DNA from: a virus
Lineage: Duplodnaviria; Caudoviricetes
Virus record (IMG/VR): IMGVR_UViG_3300025543_000030
Coordinates: 1 to 55,994 of that record
Length of the DNA stretch: 55,994 bases
Reading direction: 5' to 3' (one strand)
A program made the position numbers and the translations under genes. Under the pieces are notes generated by a model. That model was not told the DNA's origin. It made no database searches and was given only the letters and a program-made list of their open reading frames with translations. Below are positions 1,253 through 50,300 of this stretch, one piece after another; position 1 is the first letter of the stretch; each line of letters opens with the position of its first letter.

Positions 1253-1407
1253 TAATAAGTTAATTTACTAGGGTTAGCTAAAAAATATCTAATATCTAAT
1301 TGTTTTTCTTCTAAGTCTTCAATTCTTACTAATAACTCTTTAAGAGTATAAGACTCACCATCTCGATGAGACTTTACTTTTATTGGTTCTTCAGTTGGTT
1401 TAAACAT
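1252..1407 (-). CDS. small hypothetical protein (51 aa; alternative start 1416)
   Basis: Hand-translated MFKPTEEPIKVKSHRDGESYTLKELLVRIEDLEEKQLDIRYFLANPSKLTY; TAATG overlap with the next gene. Confidence 0.65.
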   Translation of the reverse strand: MFKPTEEPIKVKSHRDGESYTLKELLVRIEDLEEKQLDIRYFLANPSKLTY

Positions 1408-1439
1408 ATTATCCATTTTATATCGTATTTACTTTGTGT
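1407..1439 (-). promoter_or_regulatory. conserved bipartite motif copy 1 (putative phage early promoter)
   Basis: Minus strand ACACAAAGTAAATACGA-TATAAAAT-GGATAATA. Confidence 0.7.
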
Positions 1440-1885
1440 TTTTCTTTCCAATCAGTGTAACCATAATTGTTTTGTTTGTATTTGTCTAGTAGTTTTTGTG
1501 CACCACCGACAAATTCACAAGTGTTAGTATACTGATTATAAGCGCTTAGCCATACGTCAGGTTTACCTGTCCATATAATCCAAGTGTATTCATGGTCAAT
1601 AGAATCAACATTTGGGTATAAGTACTGACTATTATAATGAAAGTCATGTACTAAATGTGATGCTATTCTTGAACCATCACCGAAGTTTGTAAAACCTCGC
1701 TCACCTTGCATGTGCTGAATCCAGTTAGCAAGTTCTACACCTCTCCACTCAGGATAACCATCATGGTGCAGATACATATGAACATAAGCTTTATCGCTAA
1801 CCAACTGTGGTTTAACTGCAAAGCCTTTTTCAAATTCTTCTGCGTGTGATCTATCGACCACTAGTGTCATATTTCTTGTAGCCAT
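1418..1885 (-). CDS. conserved phage hypothetical protein (HHDGYP motif family)
   Basis: MATR start and YLHHDGYPEWRG motif, which I recall from uncharacterised phage proteins. Confidence 0.8.
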   Translation of the reverse strand: MATRNMTLVVDRSHAEEFEKGFAVKPQLVSDKAYVHMYLHHDGYPEWRGVELANWIQHMQGERGFTNFGDGSRIASHLVHDFHYNSQYLYPNVDSIDHEYTWIIWTGKPDVWLSAYNQYTNTCEFVGGAQKLLDKYKQNNYGYTDWKEKHKVNTI

Positions 1886-2046
1886 TATACTAATTCTTCA
1901 CCTATACTGATTATTTCAGCGATTATTAATACTGCTACACCTAATGACAACGATGACATTAGGATGCTAAAGCCCATTACTCTAAGTATAGACTTGAATA
2001 AACTCACTTTAAAATGTGGAGTGAGTTTGCTTTTAAATTTACTCAT
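1885..2046 (-). CDS. small membrane protein (53 aa)
   Basis: Hand-translated MSKFKSKLTPHFKVSLFKSILRVMGFSILMSSLSLGVAVLIIAEIISIGEELV. Hydrophobic, A/T-rich leader, TAATG coupling to the next gene. Confidence 0.7.
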   Translation of the reverse strand: MSKFKSKLTPHFKVSLFKSILRVMGFSILMSSLSLGVAVLIIAEIISIGEELV

Positions 2047-2068
2047 ATTTAATTTAATTTAATGTTAG

Positions 2069-2141
2069 TTGACTCGCTAGGGCTCGAACCTAGACTCTTC
2101 TGGACCAAAACCAGACGTGTTGCCAGTTACACCACGAGTCA
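2069..2141 (-). tRNA. tRNA-Gln (anticodon UUG), CCA not encoded
   Basis: Full cloverleaf: TGACTCG/CGAGTCA acceptor, GTGT/ACAC D stem, TCTGG-TT TTG GT-CCAGA anticodon arm, CTAGG-TTCGAGC-CCTAG T arm; followed by A-CTA. Confidence 0.93.
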
Positions 2142-2146
2142 TTATG

Positions 2147-2377
2147 CTAATCTAATAGCACTTGATAAGCTTTAGGGTTGGCTTTTCTAAACCAGTCTAA
2201 GCCTTTTCTTGTTAAATCGTACTTTTGTACCATTTGAGAACCCATAATTAAGTCATACATACTTAATTCTAAGTTGTTTAGTTCGTAAGTATCGCCTGAA
2301 AAAGGGTTTGTTACTGTTTCGCCTTTGTCGTATATTGTACCGTCGAACCATTTAGGTAATTGTGTTTTGTTTTTCAT
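2147..2377 (-). CDS. hypothetical protein
   Basis: ORF track, 76 aa, tightly packed with neighbours. Confidence 0.75.
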   Translation of the reverse strand: MKNKTQLPKWFDGTIYDKGETVTNPFSGDTYELNNLELSMYDLIMGSQMVQKYDLTRKGLDWFRKANPKAYQVLLD

Positions 2378-2606
2378 AATCTAAGTAATCTATTCTTTCG
2401 TGATCTTTTTCTATTAATGATGCTATATAATCCCACACTTCACGTTGTTGTTTTGTGTGTCTCAATACGCCTTCTAGTTGGTCTATTGTTATAAAAGGTG
2501 TTATATTATCTTTTATTTCTTGCTTTAACCTGCTAATGTCAGTGTCTAGACTGTATACATTAGCAAAAGCTTTGTCATGAGCTAAATCTTTTATTCTACT
2601 TTCCAT
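2352..2606 (-). CDS. hypothetical protein
   Basis: ORF track, 84 aa, coupled to neighbours. Confidence 0.7.
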   Translation of the reverse strand: MESRIKDLAHDKAFANVYSLDTDISRLKQEIKDNITPFITIDQLEGVLRHTKQQREVWDYIASLIEKDHERIDYLDYEKQNTIT

Positions 2607-2839
2607 TATTTATTAATTATATTGTTACCATATAATAAATCTTGAGCAGACAACTTGTAAGTTGGTATGTCACAGTAAACTGATATATCAGATACTTGAC
2701 TAACTGTTAAGTCATACCATGACGTTTTAGACATAAGTACATATTTAAGTCTTTTAGCGCTAGAATACTGTCTAGCATTTTTTTGCAGTGACGACTTAAA
2801 ACCTGGTTCTAGTCTGTCATAAATTGTTTTGATTCTCAT
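2606..2839 (-). CDS. hypothetical protein
   Basis: ORF track; ATG lies 5 nt downstream of the conserved motif. Confidence 0.75.
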   Translation of the reverse strand: MRIKTIYDRLEPGFKSSLQKNARQYSSAKRLKYVLMSKTSWYDLTVSQVSDISVYCDIPTYKLSAQDLLYGNNIINK

Positions 2840-2844
2840 ATTTA

Positions 2845-2877
2845 TATTATCCGTGTTAATTCGTATTTAGTTTGTAA
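2845..2877 (-). promoter_or_regulatory. conserved bipartite motif copy 2
   Basis: TTACAAACTAAATACGA-ATTAACAC-GGATAATA, then 5 nt, then ATG. Confidence 0.75.
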
Positions 2878-3079
2878 CATATCTTTCTTTGTTACTATCG
2901 ATTATTTCACCGATTTCATCTTGCATAGACACTATATCCATAGCAAGTAGCTGTAGTTCTGCTAAACCATTTACTTCGTAAGTACTTAGATTATTGACTT
3001 CGTTATCTTGTATAGCGTTTACGCAGTCTTGTAACGCTCTTGCAGTATTCTCGAATCTGCAGTAACTCATGTTTGGCAT
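2867..3079 (-). CDS. conserved phage hypothetical protein (MSYCRFENT family); start revised from 3112 to 3079
   Basis: MPNMSYCRFENT is preceded by the A/T leader TAAATAAATTAAAT; the upstream extension overlaps a predicted structured RNA. Confidence 0.75.
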   Translation of the reverse strand: MPNMSYCRFENTARALQDCVNAIQDNEVNNLSTYEVNGLAELQLLAMDIVSMQDEIGEIIDSNKERYVTN

Positions 3080-3102
3080 ATTTAATTTATTTAATGTTAG
3101 AG

Positions 3103-3173
3103 TGGCGACCAACCTGTGAGCAATGTCGTAAGCTTCTCACGGTGAATGCAACGTGTGACTAATTTCACCAGTC
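3103..3173 (-). ncRNA. putative structured RNA (short closing stem, two hairpins, 3' GCCA)
   Basis: GACU/GGUC closing stem, GGUGAA/UUCACC and GUGAG/CUCAC hairpins, followed by G-CCA. Confidence 0.45.
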
Positions 3174-3178
3174 TGTAG

Positions 3179-3252
3179 TGGAAGTGGGCGGAGTCGAACC
3201 GCCGTTAGACACCTTTGCTTTCGCCGCGGTTGTCTCTTACCTTATCACTCCC
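3179..3252 (-). ncRNA. tmRNA tRNA-like-domain (TLD)-like small RNA lacking an mRNA-like domain
   Basis: GGGAGUG/CACUUCC-A acceptor with G3-U70; stemless D loop AUAAGGUAAG; helix AGAC(A)ACC/GGUGUCU capped by GC-GAAA-GC; AAC linker; T arm GGCGG-UUCGACU-CCGCC. Confidence 0.7.
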
Positions 3253-3255
3253 ATT

Positions 3256-3342
3256 GGCCGGCTATTCACTTATGTGTGTGTAGCATTATCTCCAGTGGTT
3301 CTCGACACCACATACACACCTAATTAAGCTACTCGTCCGGCC
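3256..3342 (-). ncRNA. putative rod-shaped structured RNA with bulged-G (loop E/sarcin-ricin-type) motif
   Basis: Nested helices GGCCGG/CCGGCC, GCUUA/UAAGU, GUGUGUA/UACACAC, GUGGU/ACCAC; AGUA opposite GAA next to the second helix. Confidence 0.55.
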
Positions 3343-3346
3343 TCTT

Positions 3347-3535
3347 TTATTTTCTACGCCAAGCTTTGTGTACTTGATCACTTAGTTCTTGACTTACTAC
3401 TTGTATTTCTAGAACTTGTTTGTTAGCAATAATAGGTATATAGCTATATTGCTGAGTTGAACTACAGTTTACACAATTTGAATAACCTAATGCTATTCTG
3501 CCTGCCGGTATTTTGTTATTACATTTACATTTCAT
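3347..3535 (-). CDS. DksA/TraR-like C4 zinc-finger protein; start revised to 3535
   Basis: MKCKCNNKIPAGRIALGYSNCVNC resembles the C..C...IP..R.......C..C pattern of TraR/DksA fingers (first pair CxC). ATG lies 5 nt after the motif. Confidence 0.6.
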   Translation of the reverse strand: MKCKCNNKIPAGRIALGYSNCVNCSSTQQYSYIPIIANKQVLEIQVVSQELSDQVHKAWRRK

Positions 3536-3540
3536 ATTAT

Positions 3541-3573
3541 TATTATCCATTAATAATCGTATTTAGTTTGTAA
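3541..3573 (-). promoter_or_regulatory. conserved bipartite motif copy 3
   Basis: TTACAAACTAAATACGA-TTATTAAT-GGATAATA, then 5 nt, then ATG. Confidence 0.75.
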
Positions 3574-3671
3574 TTAAATCGTCTATAATATTCTACTTCA
3601 AGCCTTTCCGCTTCATACTTAGTTATTTTAAGTAGTTTAATGTGCTTATGTCTTAGTTTTCTAGTCTTCAT
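3543..3671 (-). CDS. small basic hypothetical protein (42 aa)
   Basis: Hand-translated MKTRKLRHKHIKLLKITKYEAERLEVEYYRRFNYKLNTIING; fills the gap and stops inside the motif. Confidence 0.55.
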   Translation of the reverse strand: MKTRKLRHKHIKLLKITKYEAERLEVEYYRRFNYKLNTIING

Positions 3672-3861
3672 CTAATCCAGCATGTAATTTTTCTATTGTT
3701 GCTATCATTATAGCATTGTGAACATGGTTATAATCCTCGCTGTCAAGTCCTTCAAACTCTTCAACGCCATCCATTGCCCAATTTACTGCTTCATACAATG
3801 TTTCTTTGATGTGAGACACTTGAGCGTCTGCTATTTCATCTATAATTTTCATTTTACTCAT
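3661..3861 (-). CDS. acidic hypothetical protein
   Basis: ORF track, 66 aa, ATGA coupling. Confidence 0.7.
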   Translation of the reverse strand: MSKMKIIDEIADAQVSHIKETLYEAVNWAMDGVEEFEGLDSEDYNHVHNAIMIATIEKLHAGLDED

Positions 3862-4115
3862 AATATTGCTTTTTTAACTTGTTTTAAATCGTATTTTTCA
3901 TGTGAATCACGCCACATTTTGTGCATTGTGTACTTACTTGATTGAGTATACGATGTTTTACCACGTAATTTAACCTGTTTGTACTCGCGATCGGTAAATG
4001 GTTGGCATTCACCGTGCACTTTGTTAAGCTCATAGTGTTGAAAACTACGTTGTTTACGCTTGTTTTTAACATATTGCTTTAGTTCTTGCATATTTCTACA
4101 CATATATTCTATCAT
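3858..4115 (-). CDS. basic hypothetical protein (start uncertain)
   Basis: ORF track, 85 aa. Confidence 0.65.
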   Translation of the reverse strand: MIEYMCRNMQELKQYVKNKRKQRSFQHYELNKVHGECQPFTDREYKQVKLRGKTSYTQSSKYTMHKMWRDSHEKYDLKQVKKAIL

Positions 4116-4242
4116 TTATGCGATAAAACGAAGTGTAATTTGTATACTCTATGTTTTGATGTAGTGGAGTAAGCACTTGGTAACCTTTGTCTGTTTCTAA
4201 CAGAACATTACCTGTTTCTTGATTGAATTTGATTTGTTTCAT
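4096..4242 (-). CDS. small hypothetical protein (48 aa)
   Basis: Hand-translated MKQIKFNQETGNVLLETDKGYQVLTPLHQNIEYTNYTSFYRINDRIYV; ATG lies 7 nt after the motif. Confidence 0.65.
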   Translation of the reverse strand: MKQIKFNQETGNVLLETDKGYQVLTPLHQNIEYTNYTSFYRINDRIYV

Positions 4243-4249
4243 ATACTTA

Positions 4250-4282
4250 TATTATCCATTAGTTTTCGTATTTAGTTTGTAA
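4250..4282 (-). promoter_or_regulatory. conserved bipartite motif copy 4
   Basis: TTACAAACTAAATACGA-AAACTAAT-GGATAATA. Confidence 0.75.
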
Positions 4283-4695
4283 TTTCTTATGTAGAAGTCT
4301 AACATAAATTTCATGCGAGCTAAAGTGTTCCAGATTTTAGTTCTAGTGTAACCATTGTAGATATATGTTTTAAGTGTACCTTCATCAGTTAGAAACATTT
4401 GTCTTTGCTCTCTTTTATAAACTGGATTTAGTTGATAGTTAGATGAGCAAGAGTTTACATTTCTTACATAACCTGATTTATACACTGCTAATCTTAGTTT
4501 TATTTTAGAGGCAAATCTCTCACCTTTTAAATGGAAATATCTTGATGGTACAGGAAATTCAAATTCTCTTGTGCCATTTATTGCTTGTCTTTGTGTGGTT
4601 ACTTCTTTGATATTATGCTCTATTAATAGTCTTCTAGCAAAAGAATCCTCGAGCATTTGATTTTCTTGTTGCCAAGTGTATTTATTTGTACTCAT
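4252..4695 (-). CDS. hypothetical protein
   Basis: ORF track, 147 aa; the stop lies within the motif. Confidence 0.75.
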   Translation of the reverse strand: MSTNKYTWQQENQMLEDSFARRLLIEHNIKEVTTQRQAINGTREFEFPVPSRYFHLKGERFASKIKLRLAVYKSGYVRNVNSCSSNYQLNPVYKREQRQMFLTDEGTLKTYIYNGYTRTKIWNTLARMKFMLDFYIRNYKLNTKTNG

Positions 4696-4909
4696 TGTAA
4701 TAAGGTTTAGTATAGTTAGTATTAAAGTTAATTGATTTAGCTACATTTTGTCGCCATTGCCACTCACGCTTGCGATACTCATAGCTTTGACACCATTTTT
4801 TCACAGCAGTAACTTGTGGTATTTCACCGTATTTTGCTTCATAGTCAAGACATTGTTGTAACTTTGCTTTGATTTCTGACGCTGGATAGTCTTTAAATTT
4901 TGTATTCAT
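4682..4909 (-). CDS. hypothetical protein; start revised to 4909
   Basis: MNTKFKDY... ATG lies 5 nt after the motif. Confidence 0.7.
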   Translation of the reverse strand: MNTKFKDYPASEIKAKLQQCLDYEAKYGEIPQVTAVKKWCQSYEYRKREWQWRQNVAKSINFNTNYTKPYYNEYK

Positions 4910-4914
4910 ACTAG

Positions 4915-4947
4915 TATTATCCATTAGTAGTCGTATTTAGTTTGTGA
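4915..4947 (-). promoter_or_regulatory. conserved bipartite motif copy 5
   Basis: TCACAAACTAAATACGA-CTACTAAT-GGATAATA, then 5 nt, then ATG. Confidence 0.75.
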
Positions 4948-5048
4948 GTTTCGATAATACCAAGAACATCTGCTCTTGTTAGTTTATTTTCCATTTGTAG
5001 ACCAATAGCCCACGTTAAATCATTATTATATTTATCAGTGAAAATCAT
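4917..5048 (-). CDS. small hypothetical protein (43 aa)
   Basis: Hand-translated MIFTDKYNNDLTWAIGLQMENKLTRADVLGIIETHKLNTTTNG; ATGA overlap with the upstream ORF. Confidence 0.55.
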   Translation of the reverse strand: MIFTDKYNNDLTWAIGLQMENKLTRADVLGIIETHKLNTTTNG

Positions 5049-5185
5049 ACGCCTACAAATATTACTTGATAAAACATAAATAGTATTCCTGATACTGACA
5101 TTGGTAGTAATACTCCGAAAGCATAAACTTCTAGTATTACTAAGTGTAAAGGTTTTGACTTTACATATTTTCTTATTTTTCTCAT
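5045..5185 (-). CDS. small membrane protein (46 aa)
   Basis: Hand-translated MRKIRKYVKSKPLHLVILEVYAFGVLLPMSVSGILFMFYQVIFVGV; basic N-terminus then a hydrophobic stretch. Confidence 0.65.
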   Translation of the reverse strand: MRKIRKYVKSKPLHLVILEVYAFGVLLPMSVSGILFMFYQVIFVGV

Positions 5186-5209
5186 ATTATTAAATTTTAT
5201 TATTGTTAG

Positions 5210-5250
5210 TAGACATGGTGAGAATCGAACTCACATTAACCATTATGTCT
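5210..5250 (-). ncRNA. tRNA-like minihelix (acceptor stem + T arm, no anticodon arm)
   Basis: AGACAU/AUGUCU stem, linker AAUGGUUAAU, T arm GUGAG-UUCGAUU-CUCAC, then A-CUA as in the tRNA-Gln. Confidence 0.55.
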
Positions 5251-5310
5251 TGTACTCATTCGCAATTTTATACTGTTAGAAACAAGTGGAACTCGCAGTG
5301 TTGTTAGTAG

Positions 5311-5538
5311 TTATACTAATTCTACATTTCTTAGTGCAACTGGAATATTATTAGTTGCGGTGTAAGACTTGTACTTTTGAAAGCAATTCATACTTTGTAA
5401 CTTACTTTTCATAATGTTGTACGCTATGTCATGATTGTAAGTGTATGTAATACCTTTTTTGTTAGTAAATTCTATTGTTACATTTTTTCCGATTAGTGAC
5501 TGTCTGATGACAAATCTTTTTGAAGTTATTTTACTCAT
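5311..5538 (-). CDS. hypothetical protein; start revised to 5538
   Basis: MSKITSKRFVIRQSLIGK... preceded by an A-rich leader. Confidence 0.75.
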   Translation of the reverse strand: MSKITSKRFVIRQSLIGKNVTIEFTNKKGITYTYNHDIAYNIMKSKLQSMNCFQKYKSYTATNNIPVALRNVELV

Positions 5539-5579
5539 ATTATATTTATTTATTTTATTTATTAGTTGTTTTACATTTA

Positions 5580-5612
5580 TATTATCCAATTGATGTCGTA
5601 TTTAGTTTGTAA
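5580..5612 (-). promoter_or_regulatory. conserved bipartite motif copy 6
   Basis: TTACAAACTAAATACGA-CATCAATT-GGATAATA-TAAATGTAA. Confidence 0.75.
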
Positions 5613-5727
5613 GTTCTACTACGATTTCTTCATATAGATAATCTAGTATAGTCTCATTGTACTTATCTTTACACATAGTATTGTCATATGGAAACTTTAC
5701 TTTTAACTCTTGTATTAATTCATTCAT
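5602..5727 (-). CDS. small acidic hypothetical protein (41 aa)
   Basis: Hand-translated MNELIQELKVKFPYDNTMCKDKYNETILDYLYEEIVVELTN; stop inside the motif. Confidence 0.55.
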   Translation of the reverse strand: MNELIQELKVKFPYDNTMCKDKYNETILDYLYEEIVVELTN

Positions 5728-5822
5728 AGTAGTGTATATTTATTTGGTAGTTAATATTAGTCGAATGGTATACCACACTCATTCTTATGAAGTAACTATT
5801 ATTACTTAATTACTTACATTTA

Positions 5823-5855
5823 TATTATCCAAGTAGACTCGTATTTACTTTGTAA
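5823..5855 (-). promoter_or_regulatory. conserved bipartite motif copy 7
   Basis: TTACAAAGTAAATACGA-GTCTACTT-GGATAATA-TAAATGTAA. Confidence 0.75.
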
Positions 5856-6044
5856 TATAAGAAAGTTAGTAGTGTAGAGTAAATATGTAAACATGTATAC
5901 GAATATAAACAAAAACGTAAAACATTATCACAATTGTGAAAAAAAGTGGGGCCGCCCCGCCAAACCAAAACGATTTTGTGTAACACGTTGATAACCAGAG
6001 GGATAGGGGTAACACCATACTTCTATATATCTAACAACTTTTTA

Positions 6045-6089
6045 GTGACATAAGCCTATTAATAGTATAGAGTAACAGGCTATTGTCAC
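6045..6089. repeat. imperfect inverted repeat in the divergent intergenic region
   Basis: GTGACA-TA-AGCCT ... AGGCT-AT-TGTCAC. Confidence 0.55.
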
Positions 6090-6206
6090 ACTTTGCTTTT
6101 ATTCAGTTCTATACGCAAGTAAACCTTAGCAAAAACCTGTGATATTACTAACCATAGTGCGCTTCACAAAAGTCCGTATAGAATAATGCATTAAAAAAAA
6201 TAAACA

Positions 6207-6869
6207 ATGGCAATAATCTCTTCATATCCTCAACTTACACCACAGCTTGGTGATAAAATACTAGGATCCAACGTATATGACAGCTCAGGCAATGTTGTAC
6301 CTAACAATCCTACATGTCAATTTAGCTTTTCAGACGTAAAAGCTTTAGTGGATCAAAACTACGTAGAACAATTCACATCTTCTTCTGCGGTTGCATCACA
6401 GCAATCAGGATTAAACTCTATTTATAGTATACAATTTGGAACTATAACTGGTACTAGCACTAGTAATGTTCAATTGTTACAAGGTGGTGGTTCTCCTACT
6501 GCAGGTGATAAAGTACAATTTAACACTTTAGGTACATATCAAATAACATTAACGTATTCTGTTGGTGTAAATCAATCAGCGACAAACATACCTTACTTAA
6601 TATTTAGAACATTACAAGACGGAGCAACTCAAGTTGGACCAACTATAGTGTACAATCAAAAGTTTGAAACAATAAACAACCCTGTCCCACTTATTATTCC
6701 TATAACAGTGAATATAACAACAGCAGGTACGTATTATAATTTCCAAATGGCTAGAAACGGGGTCAACGACGGAGGTTTAGTTAAAAACGCTAACCCTATT
6801 AACGGTGCTATTTTACCAGCACCTACAGCTCCTTCAATAGCAACAATAAAAATATCTAAACTAATATAA
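6207..6869 (+). CDS. virion structural protein (tail/fibre-associated)
   Basis: N-terminus MAIISSYP...DKILGS is paralogous to the next gene's MAIIYSYP...DLVLGT; beta-rich, S/T/G-rich C-terminal domain. Confidence 0.65.
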   Translation: MAIISSYPQLTPQLGDKILGSNVYDSSGNVVPNNPTCQFSFSDVKALVDQNYVEQFTSSSAVASQQSGLNSIYSIQFGTITGTSTSNVQLLQGGGSPTAGDKVQFNTLGTYQITLTYSVGVNQSATNIPYLIFRTLQDGATQVGPTIVYNQKFETINNPVPLIIPITVNITTAGTYYNFQMARNGVNDGGLVKNANPINGAILPAPTAPSIATIKISKLI

Positions 6870-20047: not shown

Positions 20048-21607
20048 ATGTCAAATGCAATTGTGAAAAATCTGAACTTTGGTTCAGATGCTAAAAACAA
20101 TGTGTTTGCTGGTATTACAAAACTTACACAAGCCGTTAGCTCCACTCTTGGAGCTAGTGGTAAGTGTGTTATGTTAGAAGATCAAACCGGTGAACCTATT
20201 ATTACAAAAGATGGTGTAACAGTGGCTGATGCCATTACACTTCTTGATCCTGTTGAAAACATGGGAGCAACTTTATTAAAGCAAGCTGCTAGAAAAACAG
20301 TGAGAGAAGCTGGAGACGGTACAACAACCGCAACAGTATTAGCTCATTCTATTTTAGATGAAGCTTATAAAGTTATAACAAAAGAAAACGCTAGAGATTT
20401 AAAAAAGGGTATTGAAACAGCAACTGATAAAGTTGTTGATTATTTAAACTCAATAGTTACTACAGTTAAAGACGATATGATTGATCAGGTAGCAACTATA
20501 TCTACTAATAACGACCCTGAACTTGGTAAAATTATTGCTAATGCTTTTAGATCTGTAGATGAAACTGGTGTTGTTATACTTGAAGTTTCTGATTTACCAG
20601 AAACTATATTTGAAACCATTGATGGTATACAATACGATAGAGGATTAAAAAATATACATTTTGTAACTAACAAAGAAAACAATACAGCTGAACTAGATAA
20701 ACCATTAGTATTGATAGTTGAATCAGAGGTTGAAAATGTTAGAAAAATACAAAGTGTTTTAGAGTATGCTATAAAACAAAATAGATCATTACTTATTATA
20801 GCTGATGTAGACCAACAAGTTATGTCCGCTTTAGCAATGAATAAATTAAAGGGTAATATTAAAGTTAATTTAATTGACGCTCCTGTTTACGGGGTTAATA
20901 AAAAAGAAACATTAGAAGATTTGGCTTTACTTACAGGAGCCACTGTTATAAATGAAGATCTTGGAGATGATATTGATTTAATAGGCCCTGAACACTTAGG
21001 TGAAATACAAAAAAGTGTTACAAGCCAAACAGAAACTATACTACATGTTGGTGAAGTTTGTAAAGAGGTTAAAGAAATCATTAAAGATTTAAAATCTAAA
21101 CTTAAAACAGCTAAGCACCCTGGAATAGTAGTTAATACTGAAAAAAGACTAGCTAGATTATCAGGTAAAGTTGCTGTAGTGAAAGTAGGGGCTAATTCAG
21201 AAGTTGAATTAAAAGAAAAGAAAGATAGAGTTGAAGACGCAATATGCGCAACTAAAGCTGCTATAAAAGAAGGTATTGTTCCAGGTGGTGGTATTGCATT
21301 ACTTAATGCATCACAAAAAGTTCAAACTTCTAACGCTTATGAAAACATACTTTTAAGAGCAATTAAAGCACCTTTTAAGACCATTTTAAGCAATGCAGGT
21401 ATAGTTAACCATAAAGTATCTTTAACAGAAGGAAAAGGTTTAAATGTAGTTACAGGAAATATGGTTAATATGATTGAGTCAGGGATTATTGATCCTTTAC
21501 TTGTCACAAAAAGTGCGTTAAGAAACGCGGCATCAGTAGCATCAACTATTTTATCAACCGATTGTGTAATCAATAATCTTAGAGTTAATGAAGGCAATAG
21601 GGAATAA
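20048..21607 (+). CDS. groEL: chaperonin GroEL (Cpn60)
   Basis: ITKDGVTVA, AGDGTTTATVLA, KDRVEDA..ATKAA..EGIVPGGG and GIIDP..VTKSAL.NA.S.A signatures. Confidence 0.97.
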   Translation: MSNAIVKNLNFGSDAKNNVFAGITKLTQAVSSTLGASGKCVMLEDQTGEPIITKDGVTVADAITLLDPVENMGATLLKQAARKTVREAGDGTTTATVLAHSILDEAYKVITKENARDLKKGIETATDKVVDYLNSIVTTVKDDMIDQVATISTNNDPELGKIIANAFRSVDETGVVILEVSDLPETIFETIDGIQYDRGLKNIHFVTNKENNTAELDKPLVLIVESEVENVRKIQSVLEYAIKQNRSLLIIADVDQQVMSALAMNKLKGNIKVNLIDAPVYGVNKKETLEDLALLTGATVINEDLGDDIDLIGPEHLGEIQKSVTSQTETILHVGEVCKEVKEIIKDLKSKLKTAKHPGIVVNTEKRLARLSGKVAVVKVGANSEVELKEKKDRVEDAICATKAAIKEGIVPGGGIALLNASQKVQTSNAYENILLRAIKAPFKTILSNAGIVNHKVSLTEGKGLNVVTGNMVNMIESGIIDPLLVTKSALRNAASVASTILSTDCVINNLRVNEGNRE

Positions 21608-27552: not shown

Positions 27553-27807
27553 ATGAGTGAAGTAAAACAAATGATTACCAAAGACCAACTGAAAAAAATT
27601 CAGGACTTTCAAAAAGAATTAAACAAATTTTTAAACGAAGTTGGATTTTTAGAAGCCCAAAAAACCGCAGTATTGGGTAAGTTCCATGAAGTTAACAAGC
27701 AGACTGAAGACTTCAAAAAAGAATTAGAAGACGAGTATGGATCTATTAATATTAATTTAGAAGATGGATCATTTACTCCTATTGAAAAAGAAGAAGATAA
27801 GAAGTAA
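27553..27807 (+). CDS. coiled-coil hypothetical protein
   Basis: ORF track; LEDEYGSININLEDGSF; (TAAAT)n leader. Confidence 0.75.
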   Translation: MSEVKQMITKDQLKKIQDFQKELNKFLNEVGFLEAQKTAVLGKFHEVNKQTEDFKKELEDEYGSININLEDGSFTPIEKEEDKK

Positions 27808-39458: not shown

Positions 39459-42400
39459 ATGGCAGAAATTAAAAATAGTTTTCTAAGGTCCAAGATGAAT
39501 AAAGACTTGGATGATAGATTAATACCTAACGGTGAATACAGAGATGCGCAGAATATATCTGTAGGAAAGTCAGAAGCTGATGATATAGGTGCTTTAGAAA
39601 CTGTTTTAGGTAATACTTTAGTTACTAATTTTGGTTTAAGTGGTGTAGAAACAATTGGTTATAAAACAATAGAAAACACAAATCAAATTATTGTTTTTTT
39701 AACTGATAACACTAATCACTATATATATAGTTACATACCTAATACAACTCCTGTTCTTTTAGTAACAGGTTCTTTTTTAAATTTTTCTACTAATAGCCCT
39801 ATAACTGGTATAAGTGTTATAGAAAATTTATTATTTTGGACAGATAACAGAAATCAACCAAGAAAAATAAATTTAAATTCAACTAACAATGGTGCGTACT
39901 ACACTAAAGAGAATCATATATCTGTAGCTAAATATAATCCTTATCAACCTATAGGTCTTTTAAGTAAAACTTCTAAAATCACATCTGGTTTAGTTGGTGA
40001 CATATTAACTGTTCCAAACACTACTGGCATAGTAAAAGGAATGTCTGTGGTAGATTATTCTAACAATACTTTAGGCCCTGAAGATTATGTTTATGTTTTA
40101 GATATACCTTCTTCAACAACAATACAATTAAAAATTCCTATAGGTCACACTATCACTGGTGTAACAAGTGGAGACACTATATATTTTCTTCAAACAACAA
40201 TGACAGGTGAGTCTATTACTTTTGATTTTAATCAAGGTAATACTTGGCCTGGTGATCCTGATTATTTAGAAAGTAAACTTGTAAGATTAAGTTATAGGTT
40301 TAAATTTGATGACGGTGAATATTCTTTAATGGCTCCTTTTACTCAAATTGCTTTTATACCTAAACAAAAAGGTTATTTTTTAGGAAGTGGAGAAAGTACT
40401 CCTGGCGCAGGTGATCAAACGACTGAAGATGAAAACAGTGCGTATAGAAGCACTATTGTAGAATTTATGGAAAACGGAGTTCAAAATATTAAATTATTAA
40501 TTCCTTTTCCTGATACATTAAATAAAATTCAACCTTCTTCAGAAGCATCTTATAAAATAAGATCAATTGATATACTTTATAAAGAATCTGATGGTTTAGC
40601 TGTAAAAGTTATTGATACAATAGATTATAACGAGCCTTTTAATGAAACTAATGGAGATGCTTGGACAGCAACAACCGATACTAATATTTTAACATATAAT
40701 TATCAGTCTAGAAAGCCGTTTAGAACACTTCCCACCGCACAAACTACAAGAGTTTATGACAAAGTACCTGTTAAAGCTTTAGCTCAAGAAACAGCAGGTA
40801 ATAGAATTATATATGGTAATTTTTTAGATAAATATACTTCTCCTAGGTTTTTAGAATATATAATTGGTGTTGGGCCAAAATCATTAGCTAAAAATTACGA
40901 CAACTGGGCAGAGTATCCAAATCATACCGTAAAACAAAATAGAAATTATCAAGTAGGTTTTGTTTTAGTTGATAAATTCGGTAGACAATCAGATGTTATT
41001 TTATCTGGAGTAAAAACTCAAGCAACAGTAGCTGTTGATGGTACAGTATATGGTGGTGACACTATTTACAACCCTTATAATTCTAGCGTAAGTGATTTAA
41101 AAAATTGGTTTGGAGATGCATTAAAAATAGATATAAGTTCACCAATAACTGTTGCAAAAGATGATACTGTTGGAACTCCTGGTTTATATGCTAATCCTGG
41201 AACTGGTTATAATACATATAATGCTACACCTGGAAACCAACCTGTTATAAACGGTAATACATACACATTTACGTTAGGTTCTGGTCAAACACAAGTGCCA
41301 ACTATTGGTTCTTTTTTAGAGGGTGAGTTTACGGATTATGTTAAAGTTGCAAACGTTACAAATGTAAACAATGATTACACTATAACAACAATCGGTCAAG
41401 TAAGTTCTATATATTTGCAACAATCACCATCTGATCCTGATGTAAAATATAAATACACTATTAATCCTACTGGTTGGTATTCATATAAAGTTGTTGTTAA
41501 ACAACAAGAACAAGATTATTACAATTGTTATTTGCCTGGTTTTTTAAATGGTTATCCTGAGTTTCAATCAGGTGCGACACCTTTTCCAACTGGTGAAGAT
41601 AATAAAACGGCACATACGGTTTTAATAAATGACAACATAAATAAAATACCTAGAGATTTGTCTGAAGTTGGACCTCAGCAAAAACAATTTAGAAGTTCAG
41701 TTCAACTATTTGGTAGAGTTGAAAACACTTTAATAGTTAGTTCTCCACCTACAGTTAATGATCCTAAAAATAATAGACAGTTTTTTCCAGGTGTAAACAC
41801 TGATACGGCTATTACTATAGGTACAGCCACTGATTTAAACATGAGCTACTCTGATTTAAAAGAGCCTCAAGGTCATAATAACTTTTATCAATTAGATACA
41901 GATCCTCTTATAGCTAGAATTAGTACATCTCAACCTATTGGTCTAATACATACTAATAATGATAATACGAACATGTATTATAATTTATCTATTTATGAAA
42001 CCGAGCCTCAGGATTCTTTATTAGATATATTTTGGGAAACGCCAACGGTAGGTTTAATATCAACATTAAATGACGCTATTCTTTCTGAATATGAAGGCGC
42101 TGTTGGTTGGTCAACTTATAGTTCTAGCGGTTTCACAGAAAGCATGAGTGGTGATTTTATAACAGGATTATCACCAGTTGATCAATCTGGTAACAATCTT
42201 TTTAATACATCTGCTTCAGCAATAACTGTTCTTGACGGGGCTGATAATGATGTTTCAGGTCAATTCAGTATCACAAGAACTGGGGCTGGAACTTTAGGTG
42301 ATCCGTATTTATATAATTTTGGAAAAATTGGTGATGATTTTGTTTACAATTATAACCCAAACCCAAGATCTTACACTATATCAGCGGTAATAACAAACAA

Positions 42401-43094
42401 TGAACCTGTTAGTCCTGTTACAAACCCAACACCTTTACAATTAAACGTTTTTTTACAAAACACTCAGCCAATTATAAACAGCGGTAATCCTTTACCAGCT
42501 GTAAACGATGTTAATCAAAATTTTGAAGGAACTATAGTTACAATAACCGGTGAAAACGGTGCGGCTAGTTCTAGTAGAAAATCAGAGCAATTAAAATGGA
42601 GTATTTCAAACGTCAGTCCTTCGTTATACGCTGGAGTTTTTTCTATAAATGAAACAACAGGGGTTATAACTAAAACAGGCACAGGAACAAACCCTGGCAC
42701 ATGTACATTAACTGTAAAATTAGAAGATGCTTATAATGGTTCTGCTTTATCTAGTGGTTCTTTAAGTCAAACTGCAACACAAGAAATTGGTATTGTTTCA
42801 GCTGTTATAGGTTATGCATTTTATGCATCACCTCCTGGTGTGTTTAATGCATCTTGTAATATTGATGGTTCACAAAATAATGCTTGTGGCTCTAATTTAT
42901 ACTACAATACTACAACAAACAGTGCTACGCCACAAGTTAATGATATTATAAGACAAGGACCAAATGGAACTAGTTCACCGTTTGCTGATGCAGGATATTA
43001 CTCTTATAATTGCGCAGAAACTGGTTTAAACAATAGAAGAGTATTTTTTATTCAAGGAAATGATGGTAAAGTTACACAAGTAATTACATGTTAA
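39459..43094 (+). CDS. tail stabilisation/nozzle protein (P22 gp10-like), N-terminal part
   Basis: KMNKDLDDRLIPNGEYRDAQNI, LLFWTDNRNQPRKIN, GNRIIYGN, VKQNRNYQVG. Confidence 0.75.
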   Translation: MAEIKNSFLRSKMNKDLDDRLIPNGEYRDAQNISVGKSEADDIGALETVLGNTLVTNFGLSGVETIGYKTIENTNQIIVFLTDNTNHYIYSYIPNTTPVLLVTGSFLNFSTNSPITGISVIENLLFWTDNRNQPRKINLNSTNNGAYYTKENHISVAKYNPYQPIGLLSKTSKITSGLVGDILTVPNTTGIVKGMSVVDYSNNTLGPEDYVYVLDIPSSTTIQLKIPIGHTITGVTSGDTIYFLQTTMTGESITFDFNQGNTWPGDPDYLESKLVRLSYRFKFDDGEYSLMAPFTQIAFIPKQKGYFLGSGESTPGAGDQTTEDENSAYRSTIVEFMENGVQNIKLLIPFPDTLNKIQPSSEASYKIRSIDILYKESDGLAVKVIDTIDYNEPFNETNGDAWTATTDTNILTYNYQSRKPFRTLPTAQTTRVYDKVPVKALAQETAGNRIIYGNFLDKYTSPRFLEYIIGVGPKSLAKNYDNWAEYPNHTVKQNRNYQVGFVLVDKFGRQSDVILSGVKTQATVAVDGTVYGGDTIYNPYNSSVSDLKNWFGDALKIDISSPITVAKDDTVGTPGLYANPGTGYNTYNATPGNQPVINGNTYTFTLGSGQTQVPTIGSFLEGEFTDYVKVANVTNVNNDYTITTIGQVSSIYLQQSPSDPDVKYKYTINPTGWYSYKVVVKQQEQDYYNCYLPGFLNGYPEFQSGATPFPTGEDNKTAHTVLINDNINKIPRDLSEVGPQQKQFRSSVQLFGRVENTLIVSSPPTVNDPKNNRQFFPGVNTDTAITIGTATDLNMSYSDLKEPQGHNNFYQLDTDPLIARISTSQPIGLIHTNNDNTNMYYNLSIYETEPQDSLLDIFWETPTVGLISTLNDAILSEYEGAVGWSTYSSSGFTESMSGDFITGLSPVDQSGNNLFNTSASAITVLDGADNDVSGQFSITRTGAGTLGDPYLYNFGKIGDDFVYNYNPNPRSYTISAVITNNEPVSPVTNPTPLQLNVFLQNTQPIINSGNPLPAVNDVNQNFEGTIVTITGENGAASSSRKSEQLKWSISNVSPSLYAGVFSINETTGVITKTGTGTNPGTCTLTVKLEDAYNGSALSSGSLSQTATQEIGIVSAVIGYAFYASPPGVFNASCNIDGSQNNACGSNLYYNTTTNSATPQVNDIIRQGPNGTSSPFADAGYYSYNCAETGLNNRRVFFIQGNDGKVTQVITC

Positions 43095-47382: not shown

Positions 47383-50300
47383 ATGCCAAGATATAAAGCT
47401 AACGGAAAAATATATAATCTTCCTGAGGAAAAAGTAGAGCAATTTTTGCAAACTTATCCAAATGCAATTTTAGTTGAAGATGAAGAAGTAAAGTTAAACG
47501 GTATTGCGGAGACGGATGCGTCTGTAATACCAGGGAAAAATATGGCGTCCACATCGGATCCTGGTTCTTCGGGTTTACCAAAAATACCAACTCAAATAGG
47601 TGATGAGTTGCAAGGTGTATCTATAGATGATATACCAAGAGAAACACCAACTAATGGTGAATTAGTATTTGGTGACCCTAGAGATTTAAATACGCAGATT
47701 ACAGATTATAGAAAAGATTATATTGATGCTTTTAATGGTAGAGGTCGATTTGCTGAAATGTTGGTTGATAAAAATCCTAAAGAACGTTTAGAATTAATTG
47801 AGAGATTAATACCTAAACCTAAGTATGTAGATAAAAAATACAATAAACAAACAGATTCTTATGATGAAAAACCTACAGAAGAAGCTGTAGAAATTTTTAG
47901 CTCTTATTTACCTTCTGATTTTGATTTATTTGATAAACCTGAGCAGTTTAACAAAGCTATGGAAGATGCTAAAGTGCAAGCTTTAAATAATGATCCTGTA
48001 GTTAAAATTATGTTAGGCGCAAGAATGTCTATTGTAACTAAAGAAGCTGAGCAATATAAATTAGATTTAGCTAAAAAATATAATTTAAACGATCCTAATG
48101 ATTATGACAAAGCCGAGAAGGATTATCAAAATTGGTTTAATACAAATGTTGTACAATATGTAGAAGATTCTGAAACCGTGCAAGCAATAGAAGATCAATT
48201 AGAAGATGTTGGAAACGTTGCTATGTCAAATAGAAACACAGAATATGGTCGTGATAAAGATTTTATGCTTTCAGCTTTTGATTTTGACAAAGATTCTAGT
48301 GTTTTAGATTTTGGAGAAGCAATGTATAAAAGTGTAAGACAAATGGGTGTTAGTTATAGAAAATCTGTAACTAGTCAATTTCATGGTAATATAATAAAAT
48401 ACGATAAAAAATTACAAGATTATAAAAAAAGACTGGATGCTGGAAAAATTAGTCAAGAAAAATATGATGGCTTAGTTAAGTATTATGAAAATAGAAAAGA
48501 AAAAGCTCAACGCTCTATAGTAAACAACGTTAAAGCTATTTCTGAAACTGAAGGTTATTTAAGTTTATTTGAAAAATCTGATTTAAAAGATGGTGCGCAA
48601 TTTGAGGATCTTATAAGAATAGTTGGTGAAGCAATACCTCAATTTGCTGCTGCTGGCGCAGGTGCTGTAACAGGTAATCCAGCTTTGGCGAGCATGGGTT
48701 TAATTTCTATATTTGGTCAAGAGTATGGCAATAATTACTACGAAGCAATAGCAGAAGGTCTTTTAGCTGAAGGTATTAAACCCACGGAAGAAAATATAGC
48801 TAAAGCCATAAGCGATGGTAAATATGCTAATAGAGCTGAAGCTGCTGCTTTTGCTGCTTTAGGAACTGCTTTAGAAAGAGTTGGAGCTAAAGGCATTATG
48901 AAAGATCTTGCTAAAAACATAGGTTTCCAAAATCTTAAAAAAATGTCTTCATCAATATATAAAAATGGTATAAAAGATTTTGTTAAAAAATTAGTAAAAA
49001 AAATACCAAGTTTTGCTAAATCCCCTGCAAGAGAATATTTAACTGAAGGCGCTCAAACAGGTTTATCACAATTATCTGTTGGTTCACAACTAGAATTAGA
49101 AACAGATTTAAACTTAGGGTATACAAAATTTTTAAATGGAGAAGAAATATTAGAAGCCGCTGAAGCAGGTGGTTGGGTTGGTGGAATACTACGCGTAGGC
49201 GGCGCAACAATAAACCAAACAACTCTTGAACTTAGAAATTCAGCTAGAGATGTTGCTACTAAATTTGATTTAAAAGGTAGTATGCTTAAAAAAGTTAATG
49301 GATTTTTTAAAGCTGTAGAACAAGATTTAAAAGTTAGGTTTGAAAAAGGAGAACTTACACAAGATCAATATCAAGAAGAATTACAAAATCTTAGTAACAC
49401 TAGAAATACAGGTATTAAAATACCTAAAAATTACAGCGAAGAAAGCAAACAAAGAGCTTTTGATTTAATTTTTGAAAAAACTAAACTTACTAATGAAATA
49501 GCTGGTTTAGATGAAAGTTCAGTTGAGCCTCAAAAAGAACAAATAAAAGATATAAACACAGAGTTAGCTGTAATATCTTTAATTGAAAAAGGTAGAATTA
49601 AAGCTGATCAAGACAGTGCACAAGATACCGCTAGCGCTACTAAAATAGGTAAACAGTTAGGTTTTAGTGTTAACAAGCTAACGCCAGAACAGATAAAAGA
49701 AAAAGGATATAACGTTAAAGAAGATTTAGGTTTTATAGAAGGTGATCAAATATTTTTAAATGAAGATTTGATTGGTAAAAGTACAAACGTTAAAACAGCT
49801 TCTCACGAGCTGTTGCATGGTATACTGTATAATTCTATAAAAAATGGTAAACTAAGTAGATCTATTATAGAAAAATGGTATAAAAATAATTTGTCAGAAG
49901 AGCAAATAAAAGTTTTAGATCAAAGAATGGAAGATGGGGGTTATAAAACTCTTAAAACTAAAGAAGGTAAAAACTATTTAGATGTAAGACCCGATGAATA
50001 TTTAACTCAAATATACGAAGCTGGTTTAATTGATCAACCTGGTATGTTTGAAAAAGTAAAACTTTTAGTTCAAGATATTTTAAATTTAATCCCTGGCGTA
50101 AATGTTAAGTTTGTTAAAAAAGATGATTTAAAAGATTTTTTAAGAGCTTATCAAACAAGCATAAAAACAGGCAAGTTATCTCAAAAAGTTGTAGATGTAG
50201 TGGGTGGTAGAATTGATGTTAAAGCACCGGTTGCTTCTTCAAAAATAACACCTAAAGCTCAAGAATTTATTGCATTAAATAAAGAAGGTGTTATTACTAA

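Follow-up and report, generated by a model that had tools for sequence, protein, structure and literature searches.

A predicted tmRNA reduced to its tRNA-like domain lies beside a conserved zinc-finger gene in a phage related to those of Flavobacteriaceae

Trans-translation is the main bacterial route of ribosome rescue and a drug target, and to our knowledge little has been learned about how phages deal with it. The locus described here lies in IMG/VR virus record IMGVR_UViG_3300025543_000030 (Duplodnaviria; Caudoviricetes), a complete record of 55,994 bases with an estimated completeness of 87%. The whole of this stretch was analysed and is hereafter called the window. Between two minus-strand genes, the first of which encodes a small zinc-finger protein, the window carries a structured RNA that appears to be a transfer-messenger RNA (tmRNA) reduced to its tRNA-like domain (TLD).

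Phage-borne and reduced tmRNAs have been described before. Full-length phage tmRNAs occur in mycobacteriophages of the Bxz1 group (PMC4131195), and one tmRNA gene is listed in a paper on Cellulophaga phages (PMC8776804). For mycobacteriophage DS6A a TLD-only tmRNA, i.e. one without a coding sequence (CDS), is on record at the tmRNA Website (PMC4131195, PMC11915505). CDS-less tmRNAs are also found in jakobid mitochondria and some plastids, where only some 65 bp of tRNA-like sequence remain and a tag frame is lacking (PMC11915505). A similar TLD-like molecule strongly inhibits tmRNA in Escherichia coli, perhaps via titration of SmpB (PMC4131195, PMC11915505, citing Mao 2009), and peptidyl transfer to a TLD-only tmRNA has been seen in vitro (PMC3895274, citing Shimizu and Ueda 2006).

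A preliminary description of the present locus, made from the DNA letters alone, had outlined a promoter motif, a TraR-like finger gene and three adjoining RNA folds, and had interpreted them as a takeover of host ribosome rescue and stringent-response signalling. Its coordinates proved accurate. As drawn, the third fold is not significant.

The central element and its family

The central RNA comprises 74 bases (3252-3179, minus strand) followed by a CUA trailer at 3178-3176. When Rfam was searched at a relaxed threshold, 3252-3176 was aligned to positions 1-374 of the tmRNA model with a score of 36.0 bits, the match being confined to the 5' and 3' ends of the model. The alignment takes in the 5' acceptor strand, runs into the beginning of the D-loop analogue, and resumes at the T-arm, from which it continues over the 3' acceptor strand to the discriminator. 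On this element tmRNA was the best-scoring Rfam family of its clan and outscored tRNA. Against the 328 positions that the model has for the mRNA-like body, the element has only 33 nt, and these form one hairpin. The acceptor stem has 7 bp including G3:U70, with GGGAGUG paired to CACUUCC, and is followed by a discriminator A at 3179. The T-arm has a UUCGA-type loop, and the D-loop analogue carries GG without a D stem. No anticodon-type arm is present in the element, its position being occupied by the variable hairpin. According to the Rfam alignment and the fold, the mRNA-like region (resume codon, tag reading frame and stop) is absent, as are pseudoknots PK1-PK4, for which the 33 nt leave no room. 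The stability of each fold at this locus was compared with 200 shuffles. For 3252-3176 the predicted energy was -29.2 kcal/mol (z -3.08), equalled by two of the 200. Judged by its sequence, then, the central element is a tmRNA reduced to the TLD, without mRNA-like region or pseudoknots (a mini-tmRNA). The central tRNA-like element of the preliminary description had been drawn to end at 3179, exactly the discriminator, and its guess of a role in ribosome rescue has a real basis because this element is homologous to the TLD of tmRNA.

Several other candidates were set aside. Two further Rfam matches, to mir-3064 (E 0.82) and permuted-tmRNA (E 1.4), were attributed to chance. A two-piece tmRNA was rejected because the fold that follows (3173-3103, hereafter E3) supplies no 5' acceptor strand complementary to the 3' strand of the TLD. 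ARAGORN did not call the central element, its only call in the window being a tRNA-Gln at 2068-2141.

For comparative analysis, 80 related viral loci were collected via the gene downstream of the RNAs, a member of phrog_8760; these loci are akin and hence not independent. A covariance model, R1, was built from the TLD family and its matches were counted at a score of at least 48 bits; the window element itself scored 63.2 bits. Such matches numbered 44, spread over 39 of the 80 loci and always on the gene strand, and an exact 28-mer of the commonest TLD type was found in 55 IMG/VR stretches. An alignment of 35 family members was then compared with controls in which the pairings were slid. The 12 pairs of the acceptor stem and T-arm were paired in 420 of 420 cells, against 45-56% in the slid controls, and six pairs were altered on both sides. 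G3:U70 was present in 33 of the 35 members. G2, G3, G5-G7 and the D-loop-like G13 were invariant, and the T-loop bases were invariant or nearly so. The minimum-energy structure consisted of acceptor, central hairpin and T-arm in 31 of 35. The central arm was hypervariable in length and sequence almost everywhere, and element length ranged from 71 to 127 nt.

Sub-types could be recognized within the family. That of the window is shared with four of the related loci (L002-L005) and one small metagenome contig (L233), and the commonest has a GGGCGUG acceptor strand. An 82-nt sub-type lies near canonical tmRNA ends and exceeds the Rfam cut-off of 47 bits (64.9, 64.7 and 53.1 bits). Some contigs carry two TLD copies (L027, L031, L040, L042, L053).

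Some cultured relatives carry something longer. GenBank phage DNA was queried with the region, the cassette and a type-a TLD with no match, and no cultured phage with a near-identical element was found. Elemovirus elemoB gave no R1 match, and the closest GenBank record, MW202828, had only a 30-bit tRNA-like match without G3:U70. The cultured Cellulophaga phages Calle_2 and phi38:1 each carry a full tmRNA of 362 nt, scoring 86.6 and 87.6 bits against Rfam, and the 3' end of the Calle_2 tmRNA has the same ACUA trailer as the window element. A path from full tmRNA to the TLD-only form inside this phage group is plausible.

The family was also sought in 185,579 species genomes with a degenerate pattern of the 3' half, which returned 101 stretches, of which 80 loci were kept. 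Strong members (59-77 bits) occurred in only five of these, all of them short contigs in metagenome-assembled genomes, and none of the five was a host ssrA end. The remainder consisted of ends of unrelated tRNAs or tmRNAs and of weaker resemblances. In Fusobacterium and Fusobacteriaceae genomes, 98-nt elements resembling tmRNA ends were seen with R1 scores of 42-44 bits (L219:3706-3803, L209:3760-3857, L189:7406-7503). Those of L219 and L209 have G3:U70 and an encoded CCA, and these elements may be another TLD-only lineage.

Such elements escape standard annotation. ARAGORN called no TLD in seven related TLD-bearing loci. In Maribacter phage Panino (PP540027.1 27557-27889; L163, L148), the annotated 333-nt tmRNA extends across genes for tRNA-Asp and tRNA-Thr and appears to be a mis-call; the real feature there seems to be a TLD-like element of 92 nt at 27560-27651 (26-27 bits). 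Since TLD genes are missed by ARAGORN and the Panino call looks mis-drawn, censuses of phage tmRNAs probably undercount the TLD-only form.

The zinc-finger gene and its linkage to the tRNA-like domain

The gene upstream of the RNAs (3347..3535, minus strand) is an open reading frame for a 62-amino acid protein with four cysteines at positions 3, 5, 21 and 24. It belongs to a family of 106 homologous clusters, mostly of 62 amino acids, with a conserved basic C-terminus. C3, C5, R13 and C24 are invariant in the family, and C21 is kept in at least 90%. The window protein itself had no Pfam match and no PDB sequence match at E ≤10, and no PHROG match; in the ESM Atlas the nearest named cluster was PF01258 (0.87), which was taken as a lead only. 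A profile search of 1.84 billion proteins yielded 299 relatives of the family, many of which have an extra C-terminal region of 90-130 amino acids that belongs to no Pfam family. Three of 10 distant homologues exceeded the 24.9-bit cut-off of PF01258 (zf-dskA_traR), namely P0219 (35.6 bits), P0237 (27.4 bits) and P0248 (25.7 bits), and one fell just below it; the three had been found by the profile of the window family at E 2e-10 to 7e-9. Three of six scanned relatives also matched phrog_54 ('DksA-like zinc-finger protein'), at profile positions 35-62 or 35-63 of 75.

Because these distant homologues match PF01258 and phrog_54, the finger is probably of the DksA/TraR type, and the window protein is predicted, through such homologues only, to be a divergent branch of that family. 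Both share a four-cysteine finger with the pattern IP..R...C..C. Unlike TraR and the phage DksA-like proteins, the window protein has CxC rather than CxxC at the first knuckle, and its finger lies at the extreme N-terminus. It begins at residue 3, and nothing corresponds to phrog_54 positions 1-34, so that about 34 positions preceding the finger are missing. In TraR and DksA, the part preceding the finger reaches into the secondary channel of RNA polymerase. The preliminary label of a DksA/TraR-like C4 finger is thus partly supported, through distant members of the family; the window protein has no match of its own and lacks the N-terminal region. With that region absent, the proposed takeover of RNA polymerase and the stringent response is unsupported.

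The gene and the TLD are closely linked. A tRNA-like element with G3:U70 lies 1-523 nt downstream (median 168) in 57 of 61 distinct zinc-finger gene contexts, in which the proteins are only 37-98% identical to that of the window. Among the 80 related loci, 37 have both gene and TLD, three have just the gene and 38 have neither; in the two that have just the TLD, the locus is cut off by the end of the contig. Outside this clade, neither a TLD nor an Rfam match was present within 1.5 kb of distant finger homologues in other phages (0 of 6 loci), and the zinc-finger gene was found in none of five GenBank relatives; linkage of finger and TLD is therefore not shown beyond the clade. A search with P0148 found no viral locus.

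Flanking folds, exchangeable modules and the early region

The fold preceding the TLD (3256..3342, minus strand), hereafter called E1, is a conserved hairpin module in which a closing stem leads through a 7-by-5 internal loop, with AGUA facing GAA, to a second stem and a variable arm. Its predicted energy was -30.1 kcal/mol (z -3.57), with one of 200 shuffles equally good. The closing stem, the conserved internal loop, a second stem of 5 bp and a variable arm recur in 26 distinct relatives, and 95.6% of the cells for 13 pairs were paired, against 17-44% in slid controls. Six pairs were changed on both sides; one example lies in the second stem, where C:G is replaced by G:C in four sequences. 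We take AGUA opposite GAA to be a signature of bulged-G motifs (loop-E or sarcin-ricin type), which are often protein-binding. E1 adjoins the stop codon of the upstream gene. In contigs from two RNA-library runs 3252 is joined straight to 3346, skipping E1, and in some loci the TLD begins about 4 nt after the stop codon. Insofar as such contigs and loci run directly from stop codon to TLD, E1 is an optional insert.

E3 (3103..3173, minus strand), just 5' of the next gene, is likewise an optional module, and no role is assigned to it. Its energy of -15.2 kcal/mol (z +0.44) was equalled by 134 of 200 shuffles and is not significant. Relatives are 99-100% identical in three loci (L006, L007, L089) and 90% identical in L027/L132, the sole divergent variant. 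There, two double changes keep the six pairs of a helix formed by 3169-3164 with 3146-3141; with only two variants, this is weak support for a structure. At the position of E3, close relatives have tRNA-Met or nothing. Of the three self-contained folds of the preliminary description, therefore, the first two beat shuffles and covary while the third does neither convincingly. The Rfam searches matched neither E1 nor E3 in the window at E ≤10, and gave no match to E1 in nine related loci, or to E3 in L007 and L027 among them, at E ≤0.1.

In relatives (L002:2658-2819, L018:1169-1285, L045:907-1008 and seven more loci), a further conserved structured RNA, module M, immediately precedes the TLD or a tRNA; the window does not have it. 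Module M is 100-170 nt long and contains three stems, a single covarying pair and an extended single-stranded part that is invariant; it has no Rfam match. A possible 5-codon frame raised the idea that M is a displaced mRNA-like domain; this was rejected on its nucleotide-level invariance, its folding on itself and its absence from the window, and because RNase P would cut M off the TLD.

The same modules are found in other combinations elsewhere in the clade. After the upstream gene the order is E1, TLD, E3 in the window and E1, M, TLD, tRNA-Met in L002 and L004; in L003 a different element replaces E1 and is followed by M, TLD and tRNA-Met. L006 and L007 have E1, M, tRNA-Met and E3 behind a different upstream gene, with neither zinc-finger gene nor TLD. 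In those two loci and L008, tRNA genes occupy the TLD slot. In relatives, then, the modules are conserved while their order and combination are reshuffled, and 'modular non-coding RNA cassette' is a fair description. Sub-modules of 16-48 nt, 83-100% identical in 11 cross-scaffold pairs, are common to the variable arms of the TLD (L018, L029, L002), M (L003, L006, L026, L053) and E1 (L011, L086, L092, L093, L116, L126, L135). One of them seems, by eye, to covary internally. These sub-modules look like structured inserts exchanged between scaffolds, and the finding of identical arm modules on three scaffolds points to a form of RNA shuffling that has yet to be explained.

Other tRNA-like elements occur in this phage group. 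In the window, a 44-nt 'micro' element (5207-5250, minus strand) consists of an acceptor stem of 6-7 bp, a linker of the AUGGUUA type, a T-arm and the trailer ACUA; it has neither a central arm nor G3:U70. It was found in 12 distinct variants, counting the window and related loci, and covaries in both stems. R1 had drawn this site as a second match at 5207-5331, an alignment that was discarded in favour of the 44-nt form. A second tRNA-like family of about 100 nt, ending ...GTTACAAA, was observed in eight loci (L009, L012, L023, L025, L029, L036, L038, L044). Its members combine a T-arm with an acceptor-like stem that lacks G3:U70. The family shares an ACGAGUA loop motif with E1, and its 3' end runs into the gene-start motif described below.

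The cassette lies in the left 6 kb of the window, which holds small minus-strand genes and is followed by structural genes on the plus strand. Its elements are co-oriented in the order gene-start motif, zinc-finger gene, E1 hairpin, TLD, E3 and next gene. The motif is a promoter-like sequence of 32 nt (3541..3572, minus strand), whose copy before the zinc-finger gene ends 5 nt ahead of the ATG at 3535, and from which the search pattern was derived (zero mismatches there, up to three allowed elsewhere). Seven sites were found, all on the minus strand within 1407-5854 and each just 5' of an open reading frame start, where 100 shuffles led to an expectation of 0.00. A scan for sigma-70 hexamers showed no resemblance, and the motif may be a phage-specific promoter or start signal. 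The G+C content of 3103-3342 is 0.508 against 0.333 for the whole window, and 3346-3080 has stop codons in all three minus-strand frames. The unit is closed by a 70-amino acid gene (2867..3079, minus strand) of phrog_8760 (E 1.9e-13), which has no assigned function; 95 relatives in viral contigs align from residue 1 (MPNMS...). No terminator-like site was called on the minus strand among the cassette elements, and the only two called in 2000-6300 are on the plus strand. The motif copy, the GC-enriched non-coding stretch, the spacers of 3 nt and the string of separate structured RNAs on the strand of the flanking genes were thus all as previously outlined. Compensatory changes had also been proposed as a check on relatives; they were found in six pairs each of the TLD and E1, while the two double changes of E3, in one variant, are weak.

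The large terminase matched 87 GenBank phage records, all except one with Flavobacteriaceae hosts (Flavobacterium 68, Cellulophaga 15, Tenacibaculum 2, Maribacter 1). An uncultured podovirus gave the top match (62.5% identity), and Elemovirus came next (44.5%). Elsewhere on the plus strand, 20048-21607 encodes a GroEL-type chaperonin (phrog_5725, E 1.4e-136) about 40-43% identical to Flavobacterium and Vibrio phage versions, and open reading frames of 2370 amino acids (47383-54495) and 1211 amino acids (39459-43094) had no Pfam family at E ≤0.001.

Proposed role and relation to known systems

The TLD-only RNA may interfere with or replace the host rescue of stalled ribosomes. By analogy with the biology of tRNA and tmRNA, host RNase P would cut the transcript at G1 and a 3' tRNA-processing enzyme would cut after the discriminator, upon which CCA would be added. 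Host alanyl-tRNA synthetase (AlaRS) could then charge the RNA through G3:U70 and A73, and the charged RNA could bind host SmpB and EF-Tu. Because it has no resume codon or tag frame, the RNA cannot tag proteins. It might titrate SmpB and so block host trans-translation, or it might take up the stalled peptide and free the ribosome with a product unmarked for proteolysis. Either outcome would spare unfinished phage proteins from tagging. The published inhibition by a TLD-like molecule and the peptide acceptance seen in vitro make action on trans-translation the best guess, and we think it somewhat probable that the RNA either soaks up SmpB or gives tag-free rescue.

Several observations weigh against this proposal. 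The window copy lies under the gathering score of the Rfam tmRNA family (RF00023), at 36.0 against 47 bits; it does not encode CCA; and the stretch beside its D-loop analogue departs from the canonical tmRNA 5' motif that is kept by the 82-nt type. Two of the 35 aligned members have G3:C70, and three have A1:U72 with a U discriminator, two of which are those with G3:C70; alanine identity is therefore not universal in the family. The 44-nt element without G3:U70 hints at an alanylation-independent role of tRNA-like ends. Relatives of the early region, cassette included, are represented in contigs assembled from four RNA-library runs of three studies, and such contigs cannot show transcription, ends or strand, or exclude DNA.

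The alternatives differ in how much of the element they would require. If the tRNA-like element were punctuation only, an RNase P/RNase Z cut site between mRNAs with E1 and E3 guarding the ends and a functionless freed RNA, its location between a pair of genes that seem to form one unit, the spacers of 3 nt, the tRNA genes in the same slot of some relatives and the abutment of E1 on the stop codon would be readily explained. For that purpose any tRNA-like fold would suffice, yet G3:U70, the D-loop-like GG, the T-loop and the tmRNA-type architecture are kept across relatives whose zinc-finger proteins have diverged to 37-98% identity with that of the window, and some contigs carry two TLD copies; punctuation alone is an unlikely account. 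Anticodon-less tRNA mimics might instead flood host factors that attack tRNA acceptor ends, such as defence toxins. The variety of acceptor/T-arm RNAs without anticodon, including the 44-nt and G3:C70 forms, agrees with such a decoy, and the hypervariable arms suggest a common constraint on the acceptor/T-arm end only. A general decoy would not need the alanine identity pair and tmRNA-like features that the commonest types keep, and no such toxin or target was identified in this analysis, so the chance of this appears small. It is marginally less doubtful, and still speculative, that the 62-amino acid protein and the mini-tmRNA form a phage ribonucleoprotein which acts on stalled or translating host ribosomes independently of SmpB, the basic C-terminal tail replacing that of SmpB and the RNA arm displaying exchangeable modules that also occur on two other scaffolds.

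The model of the preliminary description, in which a TraR-like protein reprogrammes RNA polymerase while the three RNAs take over ribosome rescue and stringent signalling early, draws on the path of the finger family to PF01258 through distant homologues and on the tight linkage of gene and TLD. It is improbable, given a protein that starts with the finger (corresponding to phrog_54 positions 35-62 of 75 only) and has no Pfam or PDB sequence match of its own, and nothing found here bears on (p)ppGpp. Phages and islands often carry ssrA fragments (PMC4131195), and related cultured phages have a full tmRNA, from which it could be supposed that the element is an inert remnant, either of a tmRNA gene in decay or of an attachment site after integration into host ssrA. 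Against this, both TLD halves are present and covary, no integrase gene was found in the window, within the sub-type of the window one and the same core goes with five different central arms (including those of L002-L004 and L233), and the 59-77-bit matches from the species genomes include no host ssrA end; a remnant is very hard to credit.

Throughout a clade of aquatic phages, the tRNA-like head is all that is retained of tmRNA; it is under strong constraint of sequence and structure and lies beside a conserved zinc-finger gene. The elements form a natural variant set that may be helpful in asking what a tag-less tmRNA does in vivo, as inhibitor or as tag-free rescuer, and which features are truly needed by SmpB and AlaRS.

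Among known systems, the full-length tmRNAs of Calle_2 and phi38:1 share the acceptor and T-arm design of the window element, the ACUA trailer being as in Calle_2, and the 82-nt TLD relatives resemble the ends of the Calle tmRNA. Those tmRNAs are 362 nt long and score about 87 bits over the whole Rfam model, whereas the window has 33 nt for 328 positions. With the CDS-less tmRNAs of jakobid mitochondria and plastids the window RNA shares the reduction to a tRNA-like piece without a tag frame. Those organellar forms co-occur with an SmpB, whereas the window RNA is viral and no SmpB gene was found in the window.

The preliminary description had known of no described system with this layout, a statement that is not supported, given the TLD-only tmRNA on record for mycobacteriophage DS6A. 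Searches of full-text literature found no account of this TLD family, its association with a zinc-finger gene or the modular cassette in phages of the Flavobacteriaceae type; paper supplements and the tmRNA database were outside the scope of that search. Both DS6A and the window have a phage tmRNA homologue with little beyond the tRNA-like domain, for which an action on SmpB and trans-translation is proposed. Compared by description only, the window phage belongs to another group and host phylum, that of the Flavobacteriaceae podophage relatives. Whereas DS6A is a single case, the window TLD comes from a large family (39 of 80 loci, and 55 exact 28-mer matches) with a hypervariable, module-sharing central arm and a fixed linkage to the zinc-finger gene.

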